64,000 nt of DNA from Candidatus Atabeyarchaeum deiterrae (GCA_037310415.1 CP147780.1:896001-960000); one strand, 5' to 3'; shown: positions 22,186 through 42,810, numbered from the stretch's first letter. Notes: generated by a model from the sequence alone, not told the origin. Translations and numbers: made by a program.

Positions 22186-23381
22186 CTATATCCTTCCTTG
22201 ATGGTTTCTTGGGTTGTTGAGTGATACTGCATTTCCCTGCAAGCATTTCCCTCGTATTCCTATTCTGTAGTGGCAATCGGGGCAGGTATTGTCTATCTGA
22301 TCAATTGCACAATATGCTATGCTCAGTCCACTGCGCTCTATCAAGAGATTGTTGCATATTGGGCAATAAGTATTCTCTCCTGGGTGCCCAGGCACATTTC
22401 CGAGGTAAACGTATCTCAAGCCTTCTTCTAGACCGATCTCCCTTGCTCTTTCCAGAGAGCTGATCGGAGTCTGCTGGGATAGACCAAGTGCCAATGCCTT
22501 GTGTGCAGCATAATATCTTGTGCAGTGCCATGGCACTTCAGCGCCCAGTTCATTTCTCATCCTAGACGCAATCAATCTAAGTATGGTTTCCTTGTCGTTG
22601 ACAGTGGGAATAACCAAAGTGACTACTTCGATGTGTTTCCCATACTTCTTCAATTCTCTCAGATTTCGCCAGACTATTTCGGCATCTACTCCGCAATACT
22701 TCCTTACGGCAATTGCGTCACCTTTTACATTCACACAGAAAGCATCACAGCCACTATTAACTATGAGTCTGAGCGCTTCTAATGTTGAATAGAGATTCGT
22801 TACATAGGTATTGTAAAGTCCCTTCTCCTTAGCTCTTCTCATCACGTCGAGGGAGTACTCGAAAAGAGATGTAGACGGTTCATTGAAAGAGAAGGATGTT
22901 CCATTGGAATGGGATCTCTTTGCTAGACTTACAAGTGTCTCTGGGTCTATGTAATTCGCATTGGAAGGGCTCGGGGGAGATTTGCTGACATCGAAATTCT
23001 GACACCTTGCCCGTCAAGATGCAACTTTCCGAAGGATGCACTTTGTCGCATCCTTGACTATGGGCATGTGAGATTACACCCGTAGCTCCCCACGGTCAAC
23101 GCCAAGCTTCCTGGCCAGAAATGAAAGAGCGGCTTCTTCTCAATTGGGTTCACGCTCATAGTTGAAATATCGCCGTATGTAACTGAATATAGTGTACCTT
23201 CGACGTTCATCTTAGTTCTACAGAAGCCTGCTTTTCCCTTGTCTATCGTACACCTTCGCTCACAGACGCCACATCTGACCCTTCCCCTTGACAAGCGCTC
23301 GTATAGCGGTGATTCTCTTACCCATTCTCTCTCAGTGAGACCTCTGTCCAAGCCCAAGAGTCTATTGCTCCTAATCTTCAC
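22186..23381 (-). CDS. AmmeMemoRadiSam-type radical SAM enzyme, spliced (exons 23381-23060 and 23006-22186; 380 aa)
   Basis: CGVCERRC, PIEKKPLFHF.PG, GCNLTCP|WCQN after intron removal, FNEP, YVYLGNVPG, TYCPIC. Confidence 0.9.
23007..23059 (-). other. 53-nt archaeal BHB intron in mRNA
   Basis: Canonical hBHBh': GCCC/GGGC central helix, AU|A and AA|G bulges, 13-bp intron stem. Confidence 0.88.
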
Positions 23382-23854
23382 TTCCTGATTATTCTTAGAT
23401 CCTGAAGGATCAGTTCCGCAACCTTGTCGACAGTCTCTCTGATCTCTCTGCTGAGCTCAGCCGAGTACATTTTCAGTTCCGTTATTTCGATCCCGTATAT
23501 GATGATCTTCTTTGGCATTTCGTCGGGGTAGACCGACTTTCCAATTTTTATCATTTCGGGCAAGCCGACATCGTGGGCGGAAGTTGGGTGAAGTGATGTC
23601 TTGACTTTAGTATCGATGTCGTTACCAGTTAATCGGTGAATTCTCCCAGGTGTATCACCTGCCAAAGAGTCTATGAATATGGCCCAGTCGAAGCCCTTAA
23701 CATTGTCAAGAAGAGCTAAGCCGCCGACTCCCCCTTCAACAAGCTCAACCCCTTTGGGCAAACGCGCAGAGCGCAACTTGTTTAAAACGTGTACCCCCAC
23801 ACCCTCGTCTCCAAGCAAAGTATTCCCTATGCCTACTATCACTACCTGTTTCAT
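23378..23854 (-). CDS. Hydrogenase maturation protease
   Basis: GIGNTLLGDEGVG, IDS, SAH. Confidence 0.93.
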   Translation of the reverse strand: MKQVVIVGIGNTLLGDEGVGVHVLNKLRSARLPKGVELVEGGVGGLALLDNVKGFDWAIFIDSLAGDTPGRIHRLTGNDIDTKVKTSLHPTSAHDVGLPEMIKIGKSVYPDEMPKKIIIYGIEITELKMYSAELSREIRETVDKVAELILQDLRIIRK

Positions 23855-23965
23855 TTCTATCCCTCGCTTTCTTGGAGTCATATTAAGGAAAGAAACCGAA
23901 TCAAAGATTGCACTCTCCTTGTTAGATTTGGTCTACTGCATCACGGATCGTCTGCTTTAAGGTCA

Positions 23966-24985
23966 CTATTTCGGTCTGACCTTGAGATAACTTATGAAAT
24001 ACATTAGCAGGAATAACCCAGCGGCGCTAAACACTGCTATAGATGCTGCATCTGGAGTAGGATTAGCCAAGGTGAATACGTAGAGTGCTAGGAATGCCAT
24101 CAGGAAAATGAGTCCCCAAACTGAGCTCCTACCCCGTGTTCTCTTGAGCCCTTTGAAGGTTGATACCAAGAATATGACTCCCACAATCCCTAAGCAAACA
24201 ATGTTGATTAAGTTGAGAGTAGAGGAAGATCCTGGAAGTGGGAGTGAAGGAGTTAAGAAGTATTGGAGACCAATGACGACGAAAATCGCGAAGACTATGG
24301 CTTCGAACAACCATATCAGTTTCGCGGGTGGTTTCGAGATGCGCAGGCCGTATGCTTGAAATTCAAACTCGGCTGCTCCAGCGTAGATGAACCATAGTAG
24401 GGAACCGACTGCCAAAGCGTCTCCAATGCAAAGGGTAAAAGCATAAATATTCTGAATAATGCTGGACCAGAAAGACGTGATCACATAGTACAGTCCAATA
24501 TACCTTGATAGGAAATAGATCAAGATGATGGTTGGGGTACCACCGAAGATGATAAGAAGGAGGAATATGAGAAACGCCCTGGCACGTCGGCTTTTCTTTC
24601 TTATGGATTCAGCCCCATAGTAGATTCTGCCTACAAGTATAATTCCGCCTATGACCGCCAAGACTGGGGAGAGGAATGGAAGTCCAAAGACTAGCAACAC
24701 TATTAGAGTATTGAAACCATAGAATATCCTCCATCTCACTGGTATGATGTATGACGTCTCCGTCATGTGTTTGATTGAAGCACTCAACCTGTCTCTGCCA
24801 AGGTATATGAAAAGAATCCATGGGATTGAGAAGAATAATGGCGCAGCAAAGTATTGGGTTAGCGCAAAGAGGACAGGATTGGCAATCTGAAACTTAACAT
24901 CTGGAGGAACAATAAAAAGGAGAACCCACAAGTACAAGGGGATCGTTGTGATCCCGACTGCAACTCCAAGTCTTGAATAATCCAT
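23966..24985 (-). CDS. Multi-pass membrane protein
   Basis: About 9-10 hydrophobic segments; no family recognised. Confidence 0.7.
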   Translation of the reverse strand: MDYSRLGVAVGITTIPLYLWVLLFIVPPDVKFQIANPVLFALTQYFAAPLFFSIPWILFIYLGRDRLSASIKHMTETSYIIPVRWRIFYGFNTLIVLLVFGLPFLSPVLAVIGGIILVGRIYYGAESIRKKSRRARAFLIFLLLIIFGGTPTIILIYFLSRYIGLYYVITSFWSSIIQNIYAFTLCIGDALAVGSLLWFIYAGAAEFEFQAYGLRISKPPAKLIWLFEAIVFAIFVVIGLQYFLTPSLPLPGSSSTLNLINIVCLGIVGVIFLVSTFKGLKRTRGRSSVWGLIFLMAFLALYVFTLANPTPDAASIAVFSAAGLFLLMYFISYLKVRPK

Positions 24986-25178
24986 ATTGCCACTTGCCTC
25001 CAACCCCAACAATAATGGAACGGCTATCTACTGAGTGGAATATATAATCAGTTGTCATGCACAACTGTTTTATATTGCCTATGTTCCCCTTAACTCTTCT
25101 CATTATGGATTGGCCGCATTGCTTAATTGAAAGACGAACATAAGAATAAGAAATGAATGTTTGAGGGGTGCTTGTAGC

Positions 25179-25508
25179 ATGTCTCAGAATATTACTCTTA
25201 GCGATTTTCAGAAGTTTGAGATAAAGGTCTGCAGGATCAAAGTTGCGGAAAAACTTGCTTCTTCAAAGAAGCTAATCAAATTGAAGGTTGATCTGGGCAA
25301 CGAGATTCGAGAAGTGGTTGCCGGAGTAGCGGAATACTACAGCTCGGAGGATCTAGAAGACAAAAACGTGATCGTACTGGCTAACTTGGAACCTAGGAAA
25401 CTCATGGGTGTTCAAAGTCAAGGGATGTTACTTGCTGCAGATGTCGATGGAAGACCATACTTGATCTTTGCAGATCCATCGATCCCTCCAGGCACCAAAG
25501 TCAGGTGA
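25179..25508 (+). CDS. tRNA-binding OB protein (Trbp111/CsaA/MetRS C-terminal type)
   Basis: KLIKLKVDLG, ANLEPRKLMGVQSQGMLLAA. Confidence 0.9.
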   Translation: MSQNITLSDFQKFEIKVCRIKVAEKLASSKKLIKLKVDLGNEIREVVAGVAEYYSSEDLEDKNVIVLANLEPRKLMGVQSQGMLLAADVDGRPYLIFADPSIPPGTKVR

Positions 25509-25512
25509 ATTC

Positions 25513-26328
25513 TCACCCAACGTTCAATATGATATTCCTGCAAAGACTGCGATTAGCTGCGGCGATAAATGATAATTTTGAGGTGGGGAGCAACTCTACG
25601 TTAACCTCAGCACCATTTCTGCCGACCATTACGCCGCCAGCTTCCTCTAAGACCAGATAAGCGGCAGCAATGTCAGTGACTCTAGCTATCCCTCTCAAGT
25701 CAATGAATGCATCATATTTCCCAGATGCGACAAAGCAGATCTCCAATGCGTTCGTCCCAAGGTATCTCTTCCTTTTTGCAACATTGAGAACCCGCAAGAT
25801 TCTTTTCATATAGACGCGCAAGTCCACGATGTTCAAATCTGCACTGATCATGCTCTCAGAAAGTCTCTCAACCTTGGATGGCGAAATACTAATACCGTTA
25901 CATTTGGCCCCTTTCCTGAATTCACCTTCGTAATATTCTCCTCTTGCCAGATCGACCACGAGAGCCTCATGAACATCGCTTAAACATTTGCCAGTGGCAG
26001 CAGCTATTGAGAAAGAATATGCTGGGATTCCGCGAATTGCATTAGCGCTGCCATCAATCGGATCAAGGATTATGGTGGTTTCACTCTTGCATTTGCCAAA
26101 GAAGCTTCTGCCTGATTCTTCACTGACTAAACTGAAATCCATGCCGCTGTCCTCGAGAGCTTTGACGGCGGCTTCCTCAGCCAGGTCATCTACTTTGCTA
26201 GTTACATCACCTTCCGTCTTGACTGTCACGACTTCGCCGGCGTCAGCAGTTCCAATGAGTGGCTTAACAACCCTCCTAACGTTTTCAGCTGCGCGTCTGA
26301 AAACAGGCATCCAACTCTCTAGAGTCAT
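25513..26328 (-). CDS. Inositol monophosphatase / FBPase family
   Basis: SEE, LDPIDGS.N, DIAAA. Confidence 0.9.
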   Translation of the reverse strand: MTLESWMPVFRRAAENVRRVVKPLIGTADAGEVVTVKTEGDVTSKVDDLAEEAAVKALEDSGMDFSLVSEESGRSFFGKCKSETTIILDPIDGSANAIRGIPAYSFSIAAATGKCLSDVHEALVVDLARGEYYEGEFRKGAKCNGISISPSKVERLSESMISADLNIVDLRVYMKRILRVLNVAKRKRYLGTNALEICFVASGKYDAFIDLRGIARVTDIAAAYLVLEEAGGVMVGRNGAEVNVELLPTSKLSFIAAANRSLCRNIILNVG

Positions 26329-26479
26329 AAGAGAACCACCACGACATCCTCCATCGCATCGACATGAATAAATCGAGGGCATGACACAATTTATGAGTCA
26401 TAGGGCCATAATCACTAGAACTCATTGGCTACATTTATCTATATGCAGGGGCTACTGAAGGGGAGAGAGCGGATGCCAC

Positions 26480-27292
26480 ATGCACAACAGCTCAAAAAGT
26501 TTCAGGCAGGTACTCGATGAGAGTTCAGCCTCCCGGGCGACAAGAATAGTACTGGCTCTCGATGTCTCTGAAAGGCTGCCTCAAGGGCGCCTCGACGAGG
26601 TCCGCAACCATTTGCTTGAGAAGGCTCTCTATATTCTCGAAGCAACCAACGAATATGTGGCTGCTCTGAAGATCAATCACCAACTTCTGCTGCCATTGGG
26701 TCTCTATGACCTCATGCAAACCATCATCAAGAAGGCAAAGTCCTACTCTCTTCCTCTGATAATGGACTGCAAAGCAAATGACGTTGAACACACAAACAGA
26801 TGGATAGCCACACACTACTTCGACGCTGGATTCGACGCTATAATCGCAAACCCCTTTGTAGGCTGGGAAGGTGGAATAGAGCCAATAATGACTCTGTCAA
26901 GGGAACAAGGAAAAGGGGTCATATTGTTAACCTACATGTCCCACAGAGGGTCGATCGAAGGCTACGGCCAACAAGTACTATCAGAAGAGTCTGCGAAACC
27001 AAGACCACAATACATGGTTTTTGCTGAGAAAGCGGCGAGATGGAAAGCTGACGGGATAGTAGTTGGAGCAACCTACCCAGAGAAGATCAGAGAGATCTAT
27101 AGGGCAATAAGAGATCAGGTTCCGATTTACTCGCCGGGCATCGGAGCCCAAGGAGGCGAAATAAGAGAGGCATTTGATGCAGGCTGCAAATACGCCATAA
27201 TAGGGCGTTCTATATATGAATCCGAAGATCCGTCCAGAGCCGCGAACGAAATGCGACAGAAGATAAATGGCGTGCTGAAGGGAGCATTGTAA
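26480..27292 (+). CDS. pyrF: Orotidine-5'-phosphate decarboxylase
   Basis: LALD, DCKANDV, VVGAT, PGIGAQGG, IIGRSI. Confidence 0.93.
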   Translation: MHNSSKSFRQVLDESSASRATRIVLALDVSERLPQGRLDEVRNHLLEKALYILEATNEYVAALKINHQLLLPLGLYDLMQTIIKKAKSYSLPLIMDCKANDVEHTNRWIATHYFDAGFDAIIANPFVGWEGGIEPIMTLSREQGKGVILLTYMSHRGSIEGYGQQVLSEESAKPRPQYMVFAEKAARWKADGIVVGATYPEKIREIYRAIRDQVPIYSPGIGAQGGEIREAFDAGCKYAIIGRSIYESEDPSRAANEMRQKINGVLKGAL

Positions 27293-27444
27293 CGAACTTC
27301 AGGTACTGTCGGACAATTCTGGTGCTTTGAACGACCTTTCAAGAGACTGGCGGGTCAAGAAAGTGCAGATGCTTCAAATCAATAGCTGAGAAATATACTT
27401 CTCAAAGTCCCAGATGAAGCCAGTCGAACCAAGGTTCTGTCTAC

Positions 27445-27606
27445 TCAAGTTCCTTTGGGGCGACCCGTACCCCAGAGTTCCTTTTTCAACATGTCTCTTA
27501 TCGCAATTCTTATTACTTCACTGCGATTCGGGTAGATTCCTGACTCGATGAGTTCATCGATACCGCTGAGGAAAGCCTCTGGGAGCTTCACGGTAACTAG
27601 TTTCAA
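27445..27606 (-). CDS. Ribbon-helix-helix regulator (CopG/CdrS-like), 53 aa, not in the ORF track
   Basis: [43 protein letters not shown]. Confidence 0.85.
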
Positions 27607-27809
27607 GAGGTACCGCCCTCATACATAGTAATCTGTGGTATCATGTGGGTAACACTAATAGACTGTGTTCGTAGCTGATAATAAGATTTTCCTAAGAGAA
27701 TTCCTGAGTGGGGTTTCTCGGAAAGGTTTTGACCCAATGTTAAAATAGTATGAAACCAATATCTTGATTCACCGACCTTGGTGGCACGAAACGAGAAGGG
27801 GTTAACCAT

Positions 27810-28613
27810 ATGACTGCTGATTCTTCTAAAGAAATGGGTTACTTTAAGACAGGAATAAAAGCTTTAGATTTCTCTCTTCCTGAGGGGGTTCCGCGGAACA
27901 GCTTTACATTGATATCTGGTGAGGGAGGTACCGGGAAGTCTGTACTTCTTACTCAGTTAATCTATGAACGTCTTAAGGCGGGAGAGCCGTGTATTCTGGT
28001 TTGCCTTGATGATTCACCTGTTGGGGTTATGCAGCAATTAACGAGTTTCGGTTGGTTTCCTGAGCCGTACATAAAGAAGAATCTATTACATTTTATTGAC
28101 TGTTTTTCTTTCAGAATGAAGCCTGATGAATCGTCAATCCCTGATTATGTAACCTATGTCAAATCGCCAACAGAGCTAGATGATCTCACCTCAAGGATTG
28201 CTGAGGTGGTTGACAGATTCGGGCTGCATAATCGTGGAGCTATGTTCATTGATTCGATAACCGAGCTTTGGTTCCTTAACCTCAAAGAGCCATATCGAAC
28301 AGTTGAATATGTGAAAACTTGGAGGGCAGAGCTTTCGAAAGAACGTCTTCTACCAGTTTTCTGTTCACACCATTACGGGTTGAAAGTCTTCGAGATATAC
28401 GAGGAACTCCTCGAGTACATTGTTGACGGGATTATAGACCTACGCTACGAGCCAAACTTAATGAAGGTTGGTTTGTTAGTGAAGCAGTTCAGGGTGAGGA
28501 AACTGAAGGGTGTGCACCATGACTCCAATTGGGTGTCTTTCACAATTACTGGCGAAGGAATCGACTTGCTCAGAATAAAAGTCAAGCCGCCCGAGAAGGC
28601 AGAAGATGAATAG
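27810..28613 (+). CDS. RAD55/KaiC-like RecA-family ATPase
   Basis: GEGGTGKS, FIDSIT, VDGIIDL, VRKLKG. Confidence 0.88.
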   Translation: MTADSSKEMGYFKTGIKALDFSLPEGVPRNSFTLISGEGGTGKSVLLTQLIYERLKAGEPCILVCLDDSPVGVMQQLTSFGWFPEPYIKKNLLHFIDCFSFRMKPDESSIPDYVTYVKSPTELDDLTSRIAEVVDRFGLHNRGAMFIDSITELWFLNLKEPYRTVEYVKTWRAELSKERLLPVFCSHHYGLKVFEIYEELLEYIVDGIIDLRYEPNLMKVGLLVKQFRVRKLKGVHHDSNWVSFTITGEGIDLLRIKVKPPEKAEDE

Positions 28614-28865
28614 TAGGGATCTCGTTGGCTGAAGTATCTTCTGGTACGCTTAGCAGAGATACTAATAGAGTTCTAGGCGATTCAGATTCCGAGTATGAGA
28701 AATATGGAAACTGATTTATATTCAGGAGCGACCCTCGTCTTATCTGCAGTTCGGAAGCTACAAAGGCTCATATGTTGAAACTGCCAAGGATTCTATTCTC
28801 AAGAATCGAATCTAGTACACGTAGGAATCTGATGAATCAATAAATGTTTTCGAGGAGTGAGTAAT

Positions 28866-30404
28866 ATGTCATGTTCAGGTACGCTTTCTCTGCCACATAC
28901 TACAAAGAGCGTATGCCCAGAGTGTCTCAAGGTTATTGACGCTGAGATCAAGGAGAAGAACGGAAAAGTAATTATTGAGAAGACATGCAAAGAGCACGGG
29001 ACCTTCACCGACACCTACTGGTCAGACGCTAATTACTTCAAGAGGGCCACAGAGCAAGACTACCCCGGGTGCGGGGTCGAAAATCCTAGAACCGAAACCA
29101 AGAAAGGATGTCCTTATGATTGTGGATTGTGCCCTAATCACAAGTCTCACACAGCTCTAGCTTTGATTGATGTTACGAACAGATGCAACCTTCGTTGTCC
29201 CATCTGCTTCGCTAACGCCGCCCATGCTGGCTACGTCTATGAACCCTCACTAGACGAGATACGCCAAATCCTCGTTAACTTTAAGAGTAACATGCCAGTG
29301 CCAGCCCCCGCTGTCCAGTTTGCTGGTGGTGAGCCAACCATAAGAAAAGACTTCCCAGAGATAGTCAAGATTGCTAGACAAGTTGGATTCAGTCACGTTG
29401 AGATCGCGACGAACGGAATAAGAATCGCGCAAGACTTTAATTTTGCCAAGGCCGTGAAAGAGGCTGGACTAAGCACCCTCTATCTGCAGTTTGATGGTGT
29501 GACACCTGAACCATTCATAGCTGCTAGAGGAAGGAATCTGCTACCGATGAAATTGAAAACCCTGGAGAACTGTAGAAAAGCAGGACTACATAGCATAGTT
29601 CTAGTTCCAACAATAGTAAAGGGAGTAAACGACCATCAAATCGGTGACATAGTTCGTTTCGCCATCAAAAACAAGGACATCGTTAGGGGAATAAACTTCC
29701 AGCCTGTCTCGATAACGGGGCGCATCGATAAAGAAGAAAGAGAAAAAATGAGGATTACAATACCAGACGTCTCAAAGCTTATGGAGCAACAGACAAATGG
29801 CATGATTAAGGCGGAAGACTTCTACACTTGTTGCTCGACTGTTCCACTAAGCAGAGTTCTTGGGCCACTTACAGGCAAGCAGGGAGTTGAGTTCTCATGT
29901 CACCCAGCATGTGGAGTTGCAACATATCTCTTCATTGAGGAGGATGGCACCGTCAACCCCATAACACACTACGTCGACTACATCGGATTAATAAAGGAGC
30001 TAAACAAGCGCCAGCAGGAGGGAACACTCGAAGGTCAACTTCTTGACGTCGTAGAAAAATTCGTCAAAGACGAGTCGATCGCAGATATGTTACAAACTAT
30101 ATTTACAGACCCTTCATATGAAGCACTAGGAAAGTATAGTCGATCAGCAATACTAGTCGGTTCAATGCACTTCATGGATCCATTCAATTTTGACGGCGAG
30201 AGAGTCTGCAGATGCGTCATACACTATGGTGTCCCTGCCAAAAAGGGTGTTCCCGGACCAATAATACCCTTCTGTGCAATGAACTCGATCCACCGCCCAG
30301 TAGTCGAGAAAGCTCTGGGAACCCCAATTGACCAATGGGTGAAAAGTCACAAAGGCGTTACTGTCGGTCCAAGTGAAGTGGGCGGGATTGTAGAAAAGGC
30401 ATAG
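28866..30404 (+). CDS. tes: Radical SAM tetraether lipid synthase (MJ0619/GDGT-MAS family)
   Basis: CPEC...CKEHG, GCPYDCGLCPNH, CNLRCPICFA, FMD..NFD.ER..RC.IHY, IPFC. Confidence 0.85.
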   Translation: MSCSGTLSLPHTTKSVCPECLKVIDAEIKEKNGKVIIEKTCKEHGTFTDTYWSDANYFKRATEQDYPGCGVENPRTETKKGCPYDCGLCPNHKSHTALALIDVTNRCNLRCPICFANAAHAGYVYEPSLDEIRQILVNFKSNMPVPAPAVQFAGGEPTIRKDFPEIVKIARQVGFSHVEIATNGIRIAQDFNFAKAVKEAGLSTLYLQFDGVTPEPFIAARGRNLLPMKLKTLENCRKAGLHSIVLVPTIVKGVNDHQIGDIVRFAIKNKDIVRGINFQPVSITGRIDKEEREKMRITIPDVSKLMEQQTNGMIKAEDFYTCCSTVPLSRVLGPLTGKQGVEFSCHPACGVATYLFIEEDGTVNPITHYVDYIGLIKELNKRQQEGTLEGQLLDVVEKFVKDESIADMLQTIFTDPSYEALGKYSRSAILVGSMHFMDPFNFDGERVCRCVIHYGVPAKKGVPGPIIPFCAMNSIHRPVVEKALGTPIDQWVKSHKGVTVGPSEVGGIVEKA

Positions 30405-30771
30405 GCGACCGGTTCGAGGAGAAGAACTGGAACACCCTTAACCCTTTTTGGTCTGATCTTGGTTTTCTTACGGTTGGAGCTATTTCCTGCTAGAATTCAC
30501 CTGTTTTGATCGAGCAGCTGAGACGGAGTTGAAGGTGACATGACTTTCTTGGAAATCAGATGCACTTTTGTTCTTTTTGATGATTCCAATCTTCAGTTGT
30601 TCAAAATGTCGGATGAAAAACCATCCCCATTAGAGAAGATCTTGGAAAACTTAGCGGTTTCAAGGTTGTATCTAAATAGCCACGATTTTGGCCTTCGCGC
30701 ATGATCAAATATATGTACGAAAGCACATTACACATATCTTCAATACATAGCAACAGAGGTGCTCCCCAACT

Positions 30772-32366: not shown

Positions 32367-32388
32367 AACAAGAAGTGGAAATTCACTA

Positions 32389-33411: not shown

Positions 33412-33584
33412 GTTAGGATCGCTCTGCCAATCCTTTGATAGTCTGTGCCTGGGGGAGTATATAAACCACCCAAACGCAAAATCTCACTCATTTTAGAATC
33501 TGGGTGGTGAAACCGATGGATTGGATATCTTCTATTCGCGAGGATGAGTTTCTTAAGAACGTTGCAGGAATACTGAGGTGTCAC

Positions 33585-34490
33585 CTATCTCATCATTTCT
33601 CTGGCTACGGCTGGAGCAGCGCTCACATAACTGATTGGCGATGGTATGGTATCAGTTCCAACTACTATTTCAGCGCCTGCCTCAAAAATCTTCATCAAAG
33701 CACCCTCAACTAGTACAGGGTGGACAGTTGCAACGTAAATCTTGTTGACACCGTTGTTCCTCAGCACATTCATCGCTTGAACTATTGTTCCTCCTGTAGA
33801 TATTATGTCATCAACTATGAGAACGTCACGTCCTTTCATTGAGAGTTCACGAGGTCTTATCTCAACTTCACCATATTTCTTGTCGTCACGCGATGAGACT
33901 CTTTGCTTCTCCAGAACGTCATAATCTGCCTCCAGCTCTTTGGCAGCCACTTTTGCCCACTGCTCTGCTTCCTCATCAGGACCTACGACTGCAGGATTCC
34001 TCAGTTTGAAGTTCTTTTCGAAATATCTTGCTAGATCAGGGACGACTGAAAGATTGGTTGAAGGTATCCTGAAAACCTTTGCGATGCTTTCTATCCTGTG
34101 AAGGTGCAGGTCTATTGTGTAGACTTCGCTTGTTCCAACTGCTTCGATCAGGTTAGCAACTGTTTTCAGGGAGAATGCTTCACCAGGGTTGAATCGCCCG
34201 TCTTGTCTTGCATAGGCGAAATAGGGAATTATCCCTCTCACCTTGGAGGCACCGATGTCCTTTAGGTTGTCGACTATCAGAAAGTACTCAAAAAGAAAGT
34301 CATCTGGCTGTTGGTACATCGATTGGACAACATTCACTACTTTGCCTTCGACATCGCCAAGGACGCGCACATATCTTTCCCCGTCAGGGAACTTCTTCAA
34401 ATCCATCTTAATGAATGGAGTACGAGACTCCCTGGCGAGTTTTAGTGCGAAGACCTGAGCGGATGAGCCACCAACAACAACTTCTTCCAT
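33585..34490 (-). CDS. prs: Ribose-phosphate pyrophosphokinase
   Basis: FPDGE, PYFAYARQD, VDDIISTGGT. Confidence 0.95.
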   Translation of the reverse strand: MEEVVVGGSSAQVFALKLARESRTPFIKMDLKKFPDGERYVRVLGDVEGKVVNVVQSMYQQPDDFLFEYFLIVDNLKDIGASKVRGIIPYFAYARQDGRFNPGEAFSLKTVANLIEAVGTSEVYTIDLHLHRIESIAKVFRIPSTNLSVVPDLARYFEKNFKLRNPAVVGPDEEAEQWAKVAAKELEADYDVLEKQRVSSRDDKKYGEVEIRPRELSMKGRDVLIVDDIISTGGTIVQAMNVLRNNGVNKIYVATVHPVLVEGALMKIFEAGAEIVVGTDTIPSPISYVSAAPAVAREMMR

Positions 34491-34574
34491 GACAATACTC
34501 ACCGAGATAAGGGTCAACTATATTGCAGACTAGTCTACTCCTTGAAACAAATAAAAGCATTGTGTACCAGCCTT

Positions 34575-35537
34575 CTAATTCCTCTTCCTAGATACCTCAA
34601 GCATCTTTTCAAGATCTCCTCTGCAAGGACTTCCACGAGTCTCAGAATTCGCGGCTTTAAGTCCACCCGCGGTGTTGGCTCTCTCAAGTGATTGGATCTC
34701 TGAGTATCCCTGAGCAAGTGAGGCTGCGAAAACACCTAAAAACGCATCTCCACATCCAACGGTATTGATTACCATCAATCCAAGTTCTTTCAGCTTAAGA
34801 GCTGGTAACGTGATTTTTTCATCTTTTCTATCTGCGTAGGCACATCCCTTTTCGCCCAACTTGACTATGACCCCTAAGTCGATGTCAGATGTCTTCAGTT
34901 TATTTCTGACTTCAAGTGGATCAGTTGATTTTGTCAAGTTGTAGCTTTCAGTTGAATTCATTACAAGAATTGAAGTGTGGCTCAGGACATTCTTGAGTTT
35001 CTTAGGTCCCGCTTCGAGCTTGGTTCCACCATCATATAGAATTGTTGCACCATGTTCGTTTCCCAGGACTGCGAGCTTCTCAGCGGTGGGTATAAGTGGG
35101 TCACTTATTGCGATGACCTTACACTCCTTGATAACTGAGAGTCTCGAAGATTGGAGAAGATCCTCTGGAAAGAACTCATGGTTCGCCCCGAATAATGTCT
35201 CGATGACATTTGCTCCCCTCCTATCAATAGTAATATATGCCTGGCCAGATTCGACGCCACCCACAAACTTGATTTGGGATGTATCAACGCCCTCCTTGCC
35301 AAGAACGTCAATCTGCGTTCTCGCTATGTCATCTTTGCCTAAAGCTCCAAGTAAGCAGACCTTCCTTATTTCCGAAATCCTTGCCGCTGCAGTAGCAACG
35401 TTGGCAGCCTTCCCGCCAGGGAGCCTCGTGACTCTTTTGACGGGAACCTCCTCCCCAACATGAGGAAACTCATCTACCCAGATATTGATGTCCCAGTTGA
35501 TTGCTCCTAAAGCAATTACATCGACGAATCCAATCAC
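34575..35537 (-). CDS. PfkB-family carbohydrate kinase (ribokinase-like)
   Basis: PGGKAAN, NTVGCGDAF. Confidence 0.9.
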   Translation of the reverse strand: MIGFVDVIALGAINWDINIWVDEFPHVGEEVPVKRVTRLPGGKAANVATAAARISEIRKVCLLGALGKDDIARTQIDVLGKEGVDTSQIKFVGGVESGQAYITIDRRGANVIETLFGANHEFFPEDLLQSSRLSVIKECKVIAISDPLIPTAEKLAVLGNEHGATILYDGGTKLEAGPKKLKNVLSHTSILVMNSTESYNLTKSTDPLEVRNKLKTSDIDLGVIVKLGEKGCAYADRKDEKITLPALKLKELGLMVINTVGCGDAFLGVFAASLAQGYSEIQSLERANTAGGLKAANSETRGSPCRGDLEKMLEVSRKRN

Positions 35538-35768
35538 TCTCCTCAGATAATAACCGTGGATCCTTCTACCTATAATGCGTTTACTTTGTCATCTCATGAT
35601 CCGCAGCAGTACGCCTCACCCAAAAGATAAAATAGATGAACCCCTGGTTGTTGTATCTCATGCGAGCGTGCTTCTTAGAAGTTTTTCTTGGGCTCAAAGC
35701 AATAGTGTCTCTCTTTCCTGAGATCCCCCTTCAATACCCGTGATTGAGCGTCAAAGGGGTTAATAGGA

Positions 35769-36554
35769 ATTTCACGCAAGAAACTGTTTGATCACCATGA
35801 CGTCGACATTCTTCTAATTGACATGGACGGAACTCTAGGTTTCTCGCTCATTCCTGAAGAGATAGGTATGTCCATAGCATTGAAATATGTCTCAGATGAG
35901 GTTGCGAAACTTACTGGTCAAGACGCAAATCTTGTTGAGATTAGACAGCTCTATGACAGGATCAAGGGCATACAGTACAAATTGTATCCGCTGCAGACAC
36001 GTAGACACGACAAAGCTCTTCGATTCAAACTGATACTCGAGGAACTCTCTCGCGTGAAGGGAATAAAGACACCTGTATCGATGGTTGACAAGATCATGGA
36101 TCTGTACTGGGAAGTCTTCGAAAGCAAAGCTGAGCCGTACCCGCAGACTCATTCCACACTTGAAGCTTTGAAACGTGACTACAAGGTCATAATAATAACC
36201 AATAACGGCAAAGAGGAAGGCGAGAGGAAACGGAAGATCTTTGGCCTAGAGTCTGACAAGCACTACGATCTCTTCATCACTTCAGAAGAACTTCACAATA
36301 CCTGCAAACCCTCAGAGAAATACTTCGGAAGAGTCTTGAGTTTTATCAAGTCATCGTTAGACATCGATGCGAATCCAAAGAAGATCGTCATCATTGGAGA
36401 TGATCCGAGCGGTGACATTGCCTTGGCAAATATGTGCGGGGTTTCAAGTGTGAGAATCAAGAAGGATCTTCATTCCTCAGAGCAACCAAGAAATGATTTG
36501 GAAAGAGCTTGTGTTGAAATTAACGAGATAAATGAACTGCTGGGCATCCTCTGA
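35769..36554 (+). CDS. HAD-family hydrolase
   Basis: ILLIDMDGTL (motif I needs extension upstream of ATG 35823), ITNN, KP, IGDD...DI; start codon uncertain. Confidence 0.85.
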   Translation: MSRKKLFDHHDVDILLIDMDGTLGFSLIPEEIGMSIALKYVSDEVAKLTGQDANLVEIRQLYDRIKGIQYKLYPLQTRRHDKALRFKLILEELSRVKGIKTPVSMVDKIMDLYWEVFESKAEPYPQTHSTLEALKRDYKVIIITNNGKEEGERKRKIFGLESDKHYDLFITSEELHNTCKPSEKYFGRVLSFIKSSLDIDANPKKIVIIGDDPSGDIALANMCGVSSVRIKKDLHSSEQPRNDLERACVEINEINELLGIL

Positions 36555-36683
36555 CAATTCAATCTCTGAATTGGCTTCTCCTTCGTTGTAACGAACTTTC
36601 CAAAAAAGTATTGTCGAGGAAAGGTGACTTGCTTCACTCTTTTCCTCCACCCGAATCAAGTCGCTTCTGTTCGAACTGACTAC

Positions 36684-37166
36684 TTATCTTCTCGGTGGTC
36701 TTCTCCCGCGACCTCGCGATCCTCGTTCGTCTAGGTCTCTGTAAAGTGGTCTGAATCTTGGTCTGAAATCTCTTCCGCCGCCAAACCGTCTGGGCTGGTC
36801 AACAACCTTCTCAGACAAGTTGTTTTCGGTGTTAACAGTTGACACCTCTGCACTGCTGTCCATAATCTGCCCAAATCTGCCGATGTTCAGCCTCATGGAG
36901 CCTTTGAAAACTGATACGTAGCCGTTCTTGATCTCCACGCTCTTCCCTTCTGAGACCTTGCCTATTGAGTCATCCCAGAGTGTCAGCAGAATAGACCCTG
37001 TTTCGTCACCGACTAGGGCCTCAGCAACTTTGTGTGCAGATCCGTCAGCTCTGGAGCTAACCTCTCTTGGCGGACTTATGTTGGAGACTTTCGCCACCAC
37101 ATTTACTTGCCTAGAACGCTCACCGAGTTCTCCTATCTTCACACTTCTCTCTTCAGACAATTCCAA
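36684..37166 (-). CDS. ssb: Single-OB-fold ssDNA-binding protein with Arg/Gly-rich tail
   Basis: VGDETGSI.LTLW, NGYVSVFKG.MRLNIGRFG. Confidence 0.88.
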   Translation of the reverse strand: MELSEERSVKIGELGERSRQVNVVAKVSNISPPREVSSRADGSAHKVAEALVGDETGSILLTLWDDSIGKVSEGKSVEIKNGYVSVFKGSMRLNIGRFGQIMDSSAEVSTVNTENNLSEKVVDQPRRFGGGRDFRPRFRPLYRDLDERGSRGRGRRPPRR

Positions 37167-37501
37167 AATCCTTCTTGGTACCTAATTCATTGCGTATTTG
37201 TCTACCAACCAGCTACTCTTAGCAAAACGAGTCCGGTGGCATTCTGGAAGATAACGCTCTTAACGAATATTTAAAGGTGTCGCGCTTGCATTGAAGGAGC
37301 GAAGCATTACTAGATGCACTGCCAAGTGACTTTCTGATTCACGCTTCTCTTATGCTTGAGTCATGTTGCGATCTTCGTGCCGCTTGCGGACATGATGTTC
37401 CTTCTCACAGCAATTTAAATATGGATCGCGTTTCCAAGTTCCTATAGAGACTGCAGGTTTATCAGAACCATTTAAGAACAGGGAAATGTCGGGGAGAAAA
37501 A

Positions 37502-38929
37502 ATGGGAAGTTCAAGTTCAGTTTTCGGGAATCGTCTAGCAGTTTGCCTGATTCTTTCAACTATTCTCTTAATGTCAGTGGCATCAGTTTCAACCTTGCAG
37601 AACATTTCCTTGATGGATAGCGCCAAAGATTCAAACACAGGCGATAACAATGGTCTTCCAGCGCCTAATTACGAAAAGGCTCCTCCCCAATACGACAAGC
37701 TACTAGTGCTAAAGGCAAAATTATCGGATAGTTCATTTGGTTCAAACCCCGCTAGCCTAAGTGCGATGGCGTCAGGCAGCCTGAATTCATACTATCAGGA
37801 AGTATCATACAATCAAGAGCTCATGAATGCCACCATCATTAACACAATCTACAATCTAACTCAGACAGAGTCCTACTATGCTTCCGGAGGCAATATTATA
37901 CAACTTATTAATGAGACAGTAATCCAAGCCAATGCTTCAGTTGTCAGCCTAGGAGGATACTCGATCTTCAGGCATATCGTCATAATACATTCTGGGACAG
38001 ACAAGGCTGTCACACATACCTTAACTGATATCAGCTCTGAATTCGTCTACAACCTAGGCGGCTCACCATTAATCAATCGCAGTCACATTAGGATCCAGAA
38101 TGCATGCATAGTTGCGCAAGCTGATCCTCTTGGTGTCGTAGCACATGAAGTGGGACATAGCCTTGGTCTACCAGATCTCTACGACATAACGTATTCTGGC
38201 TCTGGCAGCATTGATCCCCCATTTGTGGGCAGATGGGATCTGATGGGCGCAGGGAGCTGGAGCCCCTATGACCCATTAGGGTTCAGTCTTCCCACCGGAA
38301 CCAGTCCAGCACACCCCAGCACATGGTGTAAGATCAAGTTGGGCTGGATAAAACCAGGACAAATAGTGAGTATAACACAAACAGCTATCCATGTCAGCGG
38401 ATCCAATGTGATTGTCTATCTCAAACCTGAAGAGGCAAATGAATCCACCCTTGCTATACGAATAGTGCTCGATAATGGAACCTACCTTCTGGTTGAGAAC
38501 AGGCAGCAGATAGGATACGATGCAGCGTTGCCTTCAAGGGGCATTCTAATCCTCTACTGCGATGACTCCATACCAAGTGGCTATGGGCCAGTTATAATTC
38601 GGAGTGCTAACCCTCCTGGTTATGGAGCCTTTGCGGCTTTTAATGTAGGTGGTTTTGTCTCCAACAATTTCTTTGGAGATCGCAGTGCTGACATAGGCGT
38701 TAAGATATTGAACAAATGGGTCAATGGAACATACAAGATCTTGGTTGGAGATTACGATTACGTATTCAACACGCCCACGGAGTACATGGATCCAGCCATT
38801 CCACTCATACTCTTCATAGCTGTTTTTGCAGTAGTAGCGATTGTCACATTGGTCGTCTACGTGAAACGGGGAAGGCAGAAGACACAGAAGTCCACCTACG
38901 GCGATATTACGACCATAAAACTTAGCTAG
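37502..38929 (+). CDS. Membrane-anchored M6 (InhA-like) metalloprotease
   Basis: Signal peptide, HEVGHSLGLPDLY, WDLMG.GSW, ENRQ..GYD, C-terminal TM. Confidence 0.85.
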   Translation: MGSSSSVFGNRLAVCLILSTILLMSVASVSTLQNISLMDSAKDSNTGDNNGLPAPNYEKAPPQYDKLLVLKAKLSDSSFGSNPASLSAMASGSLNSYYQEVSYNQELMNATIINTIYNLTQTESYYASGGNIIQLINETVIQANASVVSLGGYSIFRHIVIIHSGTDKAVTHTLTDISSEFVYNLGGSPLINRSHIRIQNACIVAQADPLGVVAHEVGHSLGLPDLYDITYSGSGSIDPPFVGRWDLMGAGSWSPYDPLGFSLPTGTSPAHPSTWCKIKLGWIKPGQIVSITQTAIHVSGSNVIVYLKPEEANESTLAIRIVLDNGTYLLVENRQQIGYDAALPSRGILILYCDDSIPSGYGPVIIRSANPPGYGAFAAFNVGGFVSNNFFGDRSADIGVKILNKWVNGTYKILVGDYDYVFNTPTEYMDPAIPLILFIAVFAVVAIVTLVVYVKRGRQKTQKSTYGDITTIKLS

Positions 38930-39050
38930 ATAGAAGTTGGGTGGCGCTGGGCTTTCCATCCCTCTTTTTATTGCTGAATAGTAATAGTGTATTGGTTTCT
39001 CAGGGCTGATCGTGATAGGATTGATTCCTATGACTCTGTTTTGACATCTC

Positions 39051-40337
39051 TCACAGCTTCTCTAGGGGTGAAGTTACCCCCCAGTTTTTCAGATTCGCCT
39101 TCACAATCTCCTTGATCTTCTCGTCAGTTAGTTTCTTGATCTGGCTCGGCCTATAGGAACCAATGTCCATTATGATTTCTGTGATGTGCTCTGGCGGAGT
39201 TACGTCGAAAGCCGGGTTATATATCAGCACCTTGTGACTCTCAGGTTCATGTTGCGTAGCGATCAAACCTCTGGGGGGCCATTCATCTAGGGCTTTCTCT
39301 GATGTGACCCCATTTCGTTTCTTGTCCTCTGCCTCCAATCTGTAAGGATACGTAAACTCCTCAATGCTTCTCTCCTCAATTGGTATATCCTTCCCCAACT
39401 TTGTCTCCAAATCTATAGTTGAATAGGATGTGCAGTAGTAAAATGGGAGTCCATATCCATGGAACACGGAAGCAGCATCAGCCGATCCAATCTTGTTTGC
39501 AACGGATCCGTCTCTTGCGACGCGATCCACGCCTAACATCGCCTTGGTCAGTCCGAATTTACGGATGGCTGCATTGGTCATACCATCAGTTATAGCAATC
39601 ACGGGCAAGCCACAACGCAATGCCTCCCAAACCGTCAGCTTAAAACCTTGGGATCTAGGTCTTGTTTCGTGGGAAACCAACACGAGGTCCAATCCATCGG
39701 CATAAGCCTCTTCGATTCCACATGTGGCATGCGCACCATAAGAGCCTGCTAAGCCAGCGTTGCAGTGATGTAGGATAACATCTCCGTTCTCAAGATGTTT
39801 CCTTATCTCTTTTCTGGTGCAGGCGTTCAAAGCGAGATCAGACGCCAAGATGTAGTCAGCCACGGCTCTTACAACTTCAACCATATCATCAACTTTCATG
39901 CCTTTGTGATAGGCTTTCTCCACTGCCCCAATCGCCAAGTTGACAGCCCAAGGTAACGGCTGCGCTGTGGGCCTCGAACTTGCTATGAAATCGCCCTTCT
40001 TCTTGAGCTCGCCCATGAACTTTCTGGGGTCTCCGGTAGCTTTAGCAGTGCTGACGGCAGCCAGCAGCATGCAGTATCCTCCAGCGACTCCTATGGCTTG
40101 GCTTCCGCGGATTATCATGCCTTTGATGCCTGGATCAGCTGCCTGCTTCCAGTCCTTCGTCCTCCAGGTTGTGATCTCGAAAGGAAGCTTGGTTTGATCA
40201 AGGTATGCGAGCTCCTCATTCTCGTGATCGTAGTAAATCGTTAGGGGAACGTGCGTTTTCCTATGCACCTGTATTCCGATCTCGTCGTCATATTCCAGCC
40301 CGATCTTTTCGATGACGCTGTCTACTTTAGATCCCAA
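39051..40337 (-). CDS. mtnA: Methylthioribose-1-phosphate isomerase
   Basis: LDQTKLP, IRG.QAIG, SRPTA, HCNAG, ETRP..QG, NKIG, NPAFDVTP. Confidence 0.9.
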   Translation of the reverse strand: MGSKVDSVIEKIGLEYDDEIGIQVHRKTHVPLTIYYDHENEELAYLDQTKLPFEITTWRTKDWKQAADPGIKGMIIRGSQAIGVAGGYCMLLAAVSTAKATGDPRKFMGELKKKGDFIASSRPTAQPLPWAVNLAIGAVEKAYHKGMKVDDMVEVVRAVADYILASDLALNACTRKEIRKHLENGDVILHHCNAGLAGSYGAHATCGIEEAYADGLDLVLVSHETRPRSQGFKLTVWEALRCGLPVIAITDGMTNAAIRKFGLTKAMLGVDRVARDGSVANKIGSADAASVFHGYGLPFYYCTSYSTIDLETKLGKDIPIEERSIEEFTYPYRLEAEDKKRNGVTSEKALDEWPPRGLIATQHEPESHKVLIYNPAFDVTPPEHITEIIMDIGSYRPSQIKKLTDEKIKEIVKANLKNWGVTSPLEKL

Positions 40338-40582
40338 GCGACAAACTCCTCCTGTAAGAAGTCAATGGCTTTCGTGATTCCCGAATCTAGTTTCTTTTCG
40401 CCATCTCATGGTCTAGTTAGTTCTAAAGTCATACTCTCCTATTTCCTTTAAACTTTCCGATATATGGATTGGCAGAACATTCACGAGAACAGGGGAAACA
40501 GTAGCTGCAAGAGACCAGCACAGAAGCGAGAACCCCAATCCGAAAAGTGAAGGTGAGAACGAGGGCATTCAACTTCCTATGA

Positions 40583-41683
40583 CTATCTCTCTTCTTCCTC
40601 TTCCGCCGATCTGACTTTTCCTAACGCTCGCTCCTCAAGTTTCTTTAAGGCTTTCTCCAGGTCCTCTCCCAATTCGCCCTCAACGATCTTTGCGAAGCTA
40701 TCCGCTTCCGAGACTATGGTGGTCCTTTTCCCCTCCTCGTACACTCCTTTTGTCAGCACATCAATTGCCTTCTGAGGTTCCTTGACCACAACCGACGCTG
40801 ATTCCTTGGGCGCAGGCACTCCTTTCATCCTTACCAGCTTTTCTCCCATCCTCTTAGTTCTCACGAGAGGCATGGAGATCGGCACGCCTTCCTTGACCGA
40901 TGCCAACAATTGCGTCAATTGGCTCTTCTCTCTGAACATTTCGAATACAATGTGCGAGATTGACAATTCGTTTATAATTGATGCCGGTTTCTCTAGTTCA
41001 AAGATTAGGTCATAGTTGTCATTTATGCATTCAACTTCTTCTGCTGTTCTGCCTGAGCGCAAGCCGTTCATTATTTTTTCTGCTCTCCCGCGAGCCTTTT
41101 GTCTTTCTACGACGAATAGTCTTGACGCGTATGTTGGTGCTAAAGCCGTGGTCAAGGCTATGAAGAATACTGCCGTGTCTACTGGCGTGGCTAGGGGATG
41201 ATAAGCTCTCCACTCGGTCACTATGGGCTGTATGAATCCTTCAACGATTTCCCTTGTTTTGACCTGAAAATCGAGTGGTGTCATGGAGCCGTCGTCGGTA
41301 TCCTCTTTGTCAAGCTGAAGCATCTCGATTGCTCTGTTAACGTATGGGTTGAAGATTGAAAGAATGAACGTGTTCCACATCGCTTCTTTCTGCATAGATG
41401 TGATGTCAATGCTGCTAAGATCTCCATATACGCTGTCAATGAATCTGATGTTTTCTTGGGTATTGCTTCTTCCAGTATCCTCAAGTAGCTGCAACAGATA
41501 TGCCTTCTGTGGTGGAGTTCCAAACTTCTTCGAAAGTTGATTAAGTACGTCGTTCGGAATTGGCTCAAGCTCTGTTGGAAATTCTTCTACAGCGGATTCA
41601 GCCTTGTCTTTCGGTGTACTTATTCTGCCGATTGCGAGTAGCTCACGCCTTAAGCTCTCATCGTCTTCCATGATCGACTCCAC
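40583..41683 (-). CDS. Hypothetical acidic helical protein
   Basis: 366-aa ORF; no family recognised. Confidence 0.7.
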   Translation of the reverse strand: MESIMEDDESLRRELLAIGRISTPKDKAESAVEEFPTELEPIPNDVLNQLSKKFGTPPQKAYLLQLLEDTGRSNTQENIRFIDSVYGDLSSIDITSMQKEAMWNTFILSIFNPYVNRAIEMLQLDKEDTDDGSMTPLDFQVKTREIVEGFIQPIVTEWRAYHPLATPVDTAVFFIALTTALAPTYASRLFVVERQKARGRAEKIMNGLRSGRTAEEVECINDNYDLIFELEKPASIINELSISHIVFEMFREKSQLTQLLASVKEGVPISMPLVRTKRMGEKLVRMKGVPAPKESASVVVKEPQKAIDVLTKGVYEEGKRTTIVSEADSFAKIVEGELGEDLEKALKKLEERALGKVRSAEEEEER

Positions 41684-41923
41684 TTCTCACATTATTAGTC
41701 TCAAAGCGGACAGACAATTCTCCACCTTGCGAGGTTCTCCAAGGCGAAGTCACAGTATATAGAGAATAAAATCAGGAAATAAACACTCCGTTCATAATTA
41801 GTAAAGCATGCTGTGACTTTTATAGATTTAGGATTGAGAACTTCATGAGAGCTAGGCGTCTGCTCAAAAAAGGAGATTTTTGGACTCATTGGGTATCTCA
41901 AAACCTTGAGTCCAATAGTCACT

Positions 41924-42810
41924 TCACATTTGAGCACTCTTCAGAGCGTCCTTGCATTCACACTTTCTTTCCTTTGGAACCTTCGGTATCACGCTGAAAA
42001 GCAGCTTGTTGACGTCCTCAATGTTTTGCTTCATAGACTTCACGACCTGTTCCGCCGTCACTGGTTTCAAACCATAGACATCAGTATCAGTAGGCATCGC
42101 TATGTTGGCAAAGCATATCTCTGCTTCTCTGGCAAGAGCACATTCAGGATAGGCCGTCAGTGCGGGGCAAATCGGTTCTTCACCTAATTCCTTGCCTTTC
42201 CGACAACATCCCATCCTTGTCTCTTGTAGAAGAGGGACTCTGCTCTGGTTGAGAATCTTGGTCCTTCGATGCAAACGTACTCAAACGAGTCATGATCTCT
42301 GGAGTTCTCTTTGGCGTGAATCTTCATGCCCAGTTTGGTAGCCGTATCCATTATCGTCTTTCTAAGCTCACTGCAAAACGGCTCAGCGAATGCGATGTGT
42401 CCTACAATGCCTCCGTCGAAGAAGGTTTGGTTCATTCGTGGCGCTGCAGTGAAGGTGACTATCTGGTCGCATGCTACGAATTCGCCGGGTTTGATTCTGT
42501 CAGGCTGTAAGCTTCCCACCGCGGCAGGGCTAATTATTCGCGTGACGCCAAGCGCCTTCATGGCCCAGATGTTGGCCCTGAAGTTAATTTTATGCGGAGG
42601 TATTCTATGTCCTCTTTGATGCCTGACTAGGAAGGCTACTTTCCTATCACCAATGTAGCCGACAAAAACATTATCGCTGGTCGCTCCATAAGGTGTGTAC
42701 ACTTTGAGTTCCTTTGCTTCCTTCATTATCTTGGGGTCGTAGCTGCCTGAACCCGCGAAAATGCCAATCTCTGCGTTTTCATGTGGGTCTATTAAACCAA
42801 TCATGCACAT
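41924..42810 (-). CDS. mtaP: 5'-methylthioadenosine phosphorylase, spliced (exons 42810-42198 and 42159-41924; 282 aa)
   Basis: GSG, TPYG, RH..GH..PPH..N.RANI, EGPRFSTRAES, VVG|MTAYPE after intron removal, LAREAEIC, TD.D. Confidence 0.9.
42160..42197 (-). other. 38-nt archaeal intron with relaxed BHB/BHL motif in mRNA
   Basis: CGG/CCG helix, AA|A bulge, GGCAA/UUGCC intron stem, AC|U 3' site; excision gives GGA ATG ACG. Confidence 0.82.

Follow-up and report, generated by a model that had tools for sequence, protein, structure and literature searches.

Probable tRNA-type introns in the mRNAs of two enzyme genes of an Asgard archaeon

Introduction

When a conserved protein-coding gene is broken by an insert of a few dozen nucleotides, is the protein lost, or is the insert removed before the message is read? 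The question arises twice in a stretch of 64,000 nucleotides (nt), hereafter the window, which covers positions 896001-960000 of the complete 2.76-Mb chromosome of the Asgard archaeon Candidatus Atabeyarchaeum deiterrae (Atabeyarchaeia; GCA_037310415.1, CP147780.1). Between window positions 22186 and 42810, on the minus strand, a radical S-adenosylmethionine (radical-SAM) gene of the AmmeMemoRadiSam type is interrupted by 53 nt and a putative S-methyl-5'-thioadenosine phosphorylase (MTAP) gene by 38 nt. From comparison of sequences, we consider it highly probable that both inserts represent introns of the bulge-helix-bulge (BHB) kind removed from mRNA by the tRNA-splicing machinery. The two enzymes would then very probably be made only after their mRNAs have been cut and rejoined.

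A BHB intron in archaeal mRNA is already known. Splicing of the cbf5 pre-mRNA intron was shown experimentally in Crenarchaeota (Desulfurococcales and Sulfolobales), and other cases were only predicted (PMC2738675). In the literature that we searched, cbf5 is the only confirmed gene, and Crenarchaeota the only lineage, for archaeal mRNA splicing by the tRNA endonuclease. Introns of mRNA go unmentioned in PMC11291895 and in a 2026 preprint on Asgard tRNA introns (bioRxiv 10.64898/2026.10.13.758758), and the full-text literature searched, with subscription journals outside its coverage, held no report of such introns from Asgard mRNAs. What the present case adds is a different set of host genes, the Asgard lineage, and the number of introns per genome. 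Asgard archaea are studied for clues on the origin of eukaryotic RNA processing, and these introns offer defined substrates for two questions, namely how broad a range of substrates an (alpha-beta)2 tRNA endonuclease (EndA) takes in the cell and whether splicing serves as regulation.

Results

The exon junctions were set with protein family profiles, independently of any RNA motif, and the BHB was scored only at the positions so defined. Its register was taken from canonical pre-tRNA geometry: an outer helix, a 4-nt central-helix strand, a 3-nt bulge cut after its second base, and the next helix. In the radical-SAM gene, exon 1 (23060..23381, minus strand) matches positions 4-83 of profile TIGR04337 (E = 1.9e-23) and ends in ...GSYGCNLTCP plus U, the first base of a split Trp codon. 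Exon 2 (22186..23006, minus strand; stop codon 22186-22188) lies in a different frame, begins with the GG of that codon followed by CQNFDVSK..., and matches positions 86-329 (E = 4e-42), such that the profile coordinates abut at 83 and 86. Scanned separately, the exons score 82.9 and 144.3 bits, a sum of about 227 relative to a curated cut-off of 220. The 53-nt phase 1 insert (23007..23059, minus strand) separates ...UGU AAU CUC ACA UGC CCA U from GG UGU CAG AAU..., and its first bases, AG, create a UAG stop at the junction itself (CCA UAG) if it is retained. Only once it is removed is the CxxxCxxC motif of the gene intact, reading C-N-L-T-C-P-W-C-Q-N, a CxxxCx(aromatic)C Fe-S cluster motif. 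The insert forms a textbook BHB motif with 12 of 12 core pairs: an outer helix ACAU/GUGU, a central helix GCCC/GGGC, bulges AUA and AAG, and an inner helix GUCAAG/CUUGAC. The first 53 codons of exon 2 past the junction include no ATG, GTG or TTG, whereas conservation of the exon starts at the junction itself.

The MTAP gene is split in the same manner. Exon 1 (42198..42810, minus strand) matches positions 4-189 of profile NF006334 (E = 8.6e-70) and ends in ...QGWDVVG plus A, the first base of a split Met codon. Exon 2 (41924..42159, minus strand; stop codon 41924-41926) supplies the UG of that codon, continues with TAYPECALAREAE..., and matches from position 190/192 to position 266 (E = 9.5e-23), with the coordinates abutting at 189 and 190. 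Between them, a 38-nt phase 1 insert with a relaxed BHB fold (42160..42197, minus strand) divides ...GUU GUC GGA A from UG ACG GCC UAU.... It also begins with AG and, if retained, brings a stop after four codons (KARN). Its removal yields W-D-V-V-G-M-T-A-Y-P-E, where intronless Asgard orthologues read GMTAYPE or GMTAFPE. The 5' side is canonical, with the bulge AAA and the inner helix GGCAAG/UUUGCC. The genome contains no second match to the family of this gene. Scores of its exons are 234.9 and 80.7 bits, adding up to about 316, which is below the NF006334 cut-off of 382 that none of the searched Asgard relatives reaches; with TIGR01694 they score 199.7 and 47.1, again a sum below the cut-off (274.85). 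Judged by these matches, the product clearly falls in the MTAP/PNP family, and MTAP is used here as a label for its putative substrate specificity.

A preliminary description of this DNA had attributed to both inserts an AG start, phase 1, a length that is not a multiple of three, an early stop, and restoration of the family consensus when each bulge is cut after its second base. All of these hold in the sequence. In both genes the bonds predicted by the BHB rule are the profile-set junctions, and joining there restores CNLTCPWCQN and VVGMTAYPE. The predicted cuts come after CCCAU and GGGCAA in the radical-SAM transcript and after CGGAA and CCGCAC in that of MTAP. The junction peptides of the predicted spliced products would read ..TCPWCQNFDVSK.. 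and ..QGWDVVGMTAYPE...

To what extent could such geometry arise by chance? Three million random position pairs from the genome gave a mean of 4.45 core pairs with a standard deviation of 1.69. Relative to these random genomic positions, the probability is about 8e-6 for the 12 pairs of the radical-SAM intron and 0.04 for the 8 or more of the MTAP intron. Across seven split genes of the genome (12/12 for radical-SAM, 8/12 for MTAP and 9-12/12 for five others described below) the Fisher combined p is 1.5e-15. A genome-wide scan for the motif with frame joining returned about 5,200 hits per strand versus about 5,300 for a mirror-image control. Because the control matches the hit count of the true geometry, the motif alone cannot find mRNA introns; the argument for BHB introns is that independently defined junctions coincide with the motif, not that motifs were found.

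We then compared both sites across lineages. Among named relatives, the closest is 'SRVP18_Atabeyarchaeia-1' (chromosome CP147779.1; G001, with the genome under study being G000), which has a common gene order and 89% identity in the MTAP exon. The MTAP site is interrupted in seven lineages, by 38 nt in this genome, 35 in Atabeyarchaeia-1, 39 in the metagenome-assembled genome LC30, and 37, 36, 38 and 37 in four metagenome-contig lineages. At the radical-SAM site, eight lineages hold an insert in the same phase: 53 nt in this genome, 52 in LC30, 52, 52, 48, 48 and 48 in five metagenome lineages, and 29 in Candidatus Baldrarchaeum yapensis, where it forms a perfect BHB. Removal of the LC30 radical-SAM insert restores Tyr rather than Trp, and the residue stays aromatic. 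Every residue modulo three is present in both sets of lengths, and in-frame versions contain stop codons, as in the 39-nt MTAP insert of LC30, which is in frame yet contains UAG. Therefore, the inserts are not translatable, nor can they be bypassed by one fixed frameshift. In the syntenic Atabeyarchaeia-1 orthologue of the radical-SAM gene, TGCCCCTGGTGTCAG (CPWCQ; TGC CCC TGG TGT CAG), the insert is precisely missing, and none occurs in 21 other relatives with loci drawn from species-representative genomes. By lineage, the site is occupied in several groups resembling Atabeyarchaeia and in Ca. Baldrarchaeum yapensis, and empty in Atabeyarchaeia-1, Njordarchaeota and Hermodarchaeota.

Pairing is maintained across these lineages. 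In the alignment of seven MTAP sequences, 91.8% of cells are paired, compared with 34-54% after a shift of the 3' partner by 1-3 columns. The corresponding values for the eight radical-SAM sequences are 92.3% and 24-46%, with the central helix 100% paired. Each intron has five compensatory pairs, which in the radical-SAM intron lie in the inner helix (variants GUCAAG/CUUGAC, GCUGG/CCAGC and GCCAG/CUGGC), and in neither case was the covariation score of the real alignment attained in 500 shuffles. One pair of the MTAP central helix occurs as C-G, U-A and U-G: a synonymous exon change from GUC to GUU is met by G or A in the intron. In both introns, compensatory change preserves the insert ends and the helices, whereas the interiors drift. 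Presence or absence of the insert and compensatory changes, which had been proposed as a check among orthologues, were thus found for both introns.

The two exons of each gene also evolve as coding sequence. In three intron-bearing genomes, the ratio of nonsynonymous to synonymous substitution rates (dN/dS) of the MTAP gene is 0.02-0.04 in both exons (0.03 in exon 1), and the proportion of synonymous differences (pS) is 0.62-0.71, with synonymous sites near saturation. Between this genome and LC30, the radical-SAM exons have a proportion of nonsynonymous differences (pN) of 0.15-0.21 versus a pS of 0.77-0.80, and exon 2 compared with the intron-bearing copy of genome G002 gives a pN of 0.15 and a pS of 0.77. 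The downstream exons, although they lie behind a stop and, in most lineages, in another frame, have thus stayed coding sequence, each in its own frame, over a very long period.

Public gene calls do not reflect this continuity, as the preliminary description had anticipated when it expected such genes to be mis-annotated. On metagenome contigs of relatives (L253-L258), the MTAP calls are 207-215 amino acids long and a separate 78-amino-acid product is called on four of the six contigs, the remaining two (P0003) ending too soon to show it. Radical-SAM calls (L259-L263) are fragments of 201-281 amino acids, several annotated as 'pyruvate formate lyase activating enzyme', and among close relatives in the protein collection full-length calls (341-367 amino acids) occur beside truncated ones (201-281). 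Truncated or split calls can make metabolic reconstructions wrongly score pathways, such as methionine salvage, as broken.

The genes for the necessary machinery are present in the genome. There are two homologues of EndA (PF01974 matches), at about G000 C1 215530-216246 on the minus strand and about 625319-625915 on the plus strand, and this bears on the EndA subunit type, which had been suggested for checking: one open reading frame has the Tyr/His/Lys catalytic residues (...DFGVYQHGPGIDHAPF...VRKK...), and the second, without the His, is probably a structural beta subunit. A single intact RtcB ligase gene (PF01139) lies at 982706-984013, 22 kb beyond the window. Asgard EndA has the (alpha-beta)2 form with an L1 loop, which widens its specificity to relaxed motifs (Hirata et al., PMC5829648). 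Taking the loop from that study of Asgard archaea, the EndA of this genome should be able to accept relaxed motifs. Introns occur in 92-95% of the tRNA genes of these genomes, often several per gene and at non-canonical sites (PMC11291895).

Six further genes of the genome are split: cbf5, gatE, glyA, valS, rio2, and a RuBisCO-like gene. Their profile halves abut at positions 7-71 and 70-320 in cbf5, 2-86 and 84-621 in gatE, 5-55 and 51-399 in glyA, and 8-83 and 83-812 in valS. In the set of five formed by cbf5, gatE, glyA, valS and rio2, the inserts measure 41, 41, 41, 31 and 52 nt and score 9-12 of 12 for BHB at the homology-defined junctions. These five are split at the same codon in Atabeyarchaeia-1, with interiors diverged and helices kept. 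The 41-nt cbf5 intron (G000:C1:395677-395717) falls between the first and second base (G and AT) of the catalytic Asp codon. Its position at the same site as the crenarchaeal intron raises the question of whether the intron is ancient or was inserted repeatedly at one site.

Eight split mRNA genes in 2.76 Mb is a lower bound. Requiring the relaxed motif at the same junction peptide in this genome and Atabeyarchaeia-1 left 2,138 hits, which a codon-usage filter brought down to 118 clusters. Most of these were boundaries of genes or non-coding frames that are conserved; cbf5 appeared at its exact junction, and MTAP, glyA and rio2 only as wrong nearby junctions. A census by missing start codon upstream of a conserved part returned 196-481 candidates depending on tolerance, and its noise was excessive, since this criterion lets conserved leaders and antisense frames through. 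In a motif-free tblastn comparison of the genome with 85% of the Atabeyarchaeia-1 genome, the radical-SAM gene had the only clear protein-gene intron that differs.

The preliminary description had read the two inserts as a splicing system within 20 kb of a lineage that splices many mRNAs. The lineage does appear to splice further mRNAs, in modest number rather than a flood, and what lies within the 20 kb is two independent introns, with the machinery elsewhere in the genome. It had also raised the possibility of a regulatory link through SAM chemistry, which we rejected as unsupported: cbf5, gatE, glyA, valS and rio2 are unrelated to SAM, and the shared chemistry of the two hosts is probably coincidence.

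Discussion

Taken together, the indirect support for removal at the RNA level is strong, because the BHB motif sits at junctions fixed by homology, its helices covary, insert lengths are free, both exons are under selection, the insert can be precisely absent, and the genome has EndA and RtcB genes. Several points weigh against this reading. Cleavage by EndA and ligation by RtcB are both inferred from the presence of their genes and from other archaea. The only RNA run containing this DNA (word share 0.09) gave five contigs of 158-408 nt on 19.8 kb, none of them over an intron, and a search of the protein collection returned no full-length, near-identical MTAP or radical-SAM protein that would betray a spliced contig. 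An intact radical-SAM paralogue in the genome (G000 2428720-2429709) means that losing the split copy is not necessarily lethal. The MTAP fold is also imperfect. A 3-nt bulge on each side had been claimed for both inserts, and this is strictly true of the radical-SAM intron; on the 3' side of the MTAP intron the motif is relaxed, with a U.C mismatch in the central helix (UCGG/CCGC) and a 3' bulge of AC before the cut and U after it. Its outer helix is weak in the strict register, and 8 of 12 pairs correspond to p = 0.04 when taken alone. Two sister lineages have the full 4-bp central helix (UUGG/CCGG and UCGG/CCGG), and the relaxed MTAP form here is therefore a variant of the canonical motif. 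As for the expression data, the RNA run speaks neither for nor against splicing, and the missing full-length protein in the collection is no evidence against it. One RNA contig (41206-41613) differs from the genome at 41384 (T>C) and 41432 (G>A), which most likely reflects a variant strain among those sampled rather than editing.

Could both genes instead be pseudogenes, broken by a small insertion and now decaying? Read literally, both frames are broken; the radical-SAM gene has its intact paralogue, and one relative (G037) has a plain 1-nt frameshift in the same motif. However, MTAP is the sole member of its family in the genome, and no second lesion was seen in the 7-8 intron-bearing lineages. 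Selection also held the insert ends and helices through compensatory change, and the downstream exons are strongly conserved despite being out of frame and saturated at synonymous sites. Purifying selection on both exons therefore excludes pseudogenes for practical purposes, and we regard decay as very unlikely. An insert can also be dealt with during translation. In phage T4 gene 60, ribosomes hop over an insert with a stop codon and hairpin at the take-off site, and both inserts here likewise place a stop at or just past the putative take-off point, followed by a hairpin. Recoding by such a hop or a shift of frame, with no RNA processing, nevertheless fits the data poorly. Both splits fall inside a codon, which hopping cannot rebuild; neither gene has a matching pair of take-off and landing codons; lengths of 29-53 and 35-39 nt span all residues modulo three; and the conserved feature is the BHB geometry itself, including base pairing between exon and intron. 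There is very little room for recoding as an explanation.

Another reading is that the genes are truly split, each encoding two polypeptides that assemble into the enzyme. Gene callers do yield two products of 207 and 78 amino acids for MTAP, and in the unspliced frame of two relatives the split codon reads TTG, a possible start. The corresponding codon in this genome is CTG, however, and radical-SAM exon 2 lacks any start for its first 53 codons although it is conserved from the junction on. Two polypeptides would also place the second and the third Cys of a single Fe-S loop on different chains, and would leave the conserved BHB and the restored split codon without reason. We find assembly from two polypeptides unlikely, though it is the least improbable of the alternatives. 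Lastly, the inserts might be assembly or sequencing artefacts, since the genome derives from metagenomes; the preliminary description had pointed to DNA reads as a way of recognizing assembly artefacts. Contigs built independently from two metagenome runs of two studies, possibly the source samples of the genome, carry both inserts unchanged, and the inserts are therefore not assembly artefacts; homologous inserts are also found in other genomes and in metagenome contigs of other samples. An artefact is scarcely conceivable.

For removal from the mRNA by the tRNA-splicing machinery, we propose the following course. After transcription, exon and intron bases would pair to form the outer helix, a 3-nt bulge, the 4-bp central helix, a second 3-nt bulge, and the intron hairpin. 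The (alpha-beta)2 EndA, on which this lineage relies for its heavily interrupted tRNA genes, would then cut after the second base of each bulge. RtcB would ligate the exons, rebuilding the split codons: Trp in the radical-SAM Fe-S motif and Met in the MTAP motif G-M-T. Unspliced mRNA would yield only truncated products.

How does this compare with known systems? Like the crenarchaeal cbf5 intron (PMC2738675), these are short BHB introns in phase 1, in a codon of a catalytic motif, whose removal is needed for a working protein; they too are gained and lost sporadically among relatives and occur alongside an (alpha-beta)2 EndA, and the cbf5 intron of this genome occupies the same Asp codon in the same phase. 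Unlike that case, in which splicing was demonstrated experimentally, the introns here are known from sequence comparison, their hosts are radical-SAM and MTAP genes of an Asgard lineage, and there are at least eight mRNA introns per genome instead of one. The tRNA introns of Atabeyarchaeia and Freyarchaeia (PMC11291895; bioRxiv 10.64898/2026.10.13.758758) share the organism, the geometry, bulges rich in A, lengths of some tens of nucleotides and, presumably, the EndA and RtcB that act on them. They differ in that here the host is an mRNA, in which the outer and central helices are built from coding sequence and the reading frame must survive.

Inteins resemble these introns as selfish insertions in the most conserved motif that are removed after transcription. 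In contrast, inteins are translated, hundreds of residues long and in frame, and are removed at the protein level. In eukaryotes, HAC1/XBP1 splicing proceeds by Ire1 cleavage followed by a tRNA ligase or RtcB (RtcB in animals), and is stress-regulated with one target. It shares with the introns described here the spliceosome-free removal of a short mRNA intron, hairpin or bulge sites cut by a protein endonuclease, a ligase of tRNA splicing, and a change of frame; the link between RtcB and XBP1 is noted in PMC8718801. Unlike in HAC1/XBP1, the endonuclease here is predicted to be EndA rather than Ire1, and stress regulation is a feature of HAC1/XBP1.

More broadly, we lean towards the view that Atabeyarchaeia run a standing mRNA splicing that depends on EndA and RtcB. 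Under this broader proposal, BHB introns from the population that has overrun the tRNA genes would have colonized conserved-motif codons of housekeeping mRNAs, including that of the essential valS, where they persist for long periods and are gained and lost precisely; expression of the enzymes would depend on tRNA splicing and could be tuned by it. If true, obligatory mRNA splicing based on protein enzymes would exist in the closest archaeal relatives of eukaryotes.

Additional observations

Other arrangements were seen at the radical-SAM locus of further genomes. In another Asgard genome (G029, L089:506-3070), the orthologous gene holds about 1.5 kb of extra in-frame sequence, including an intein splicing domain (PF14890), at or beside the same CxxxCxxC motif; this one site thus holds two different kinds of removable insertion, a BHB intron here and an intein there. 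In G040 (L090, C6:751300-761600), the gene is divided at the same motif, and some 8 kb separate its halves. The G037 gene (L091, C1:2483700-2485900) has its 1-nt frameshift in a T run within the motif, together with three TAA stops in the match, and is probably a real pseudogene. A record in nr (P0122) labelled Candidatus Njordarchaeum guaymaensis is a truncated radical-SAM protein of 276 amino acids that is 71% identical to exon 2. The Njordarchaeota radical-SAM loci that we fetched are unsplit and only about 50% identical, and the label or binning of this record may be wrong.

Two genes from MTAP lies an IF-2B family gene, MtnA-like or ribose-1,5-bisphosphate isomerase-like (window 39054-40337, minus strand). 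This arrangement hints that MTAP, the MtnA-like gene and the RuBisCO-like gene could all serve methionine salvage, in which case two members would need splicing.

Two kinds of insertion differ between this genome and Atabeyarchaeia-1. Inserts of 23-32 nt differ between G001 at about 457578-457599 and 259607-259628 and G000 at about 465000 and 271000; the frames resemble rRNA or non-coding RNA, and these are possibly polymorphic rRNA introns. Compared with their G000 orthologues, four large genes of G001 contain 1.27-1.5 kb of inserted in-frame sequence (526263-527758, 658257-659626, 1030574-1031928 and 1429973-1431237); these insertions are probably inteins that one genome has and the other lacks.

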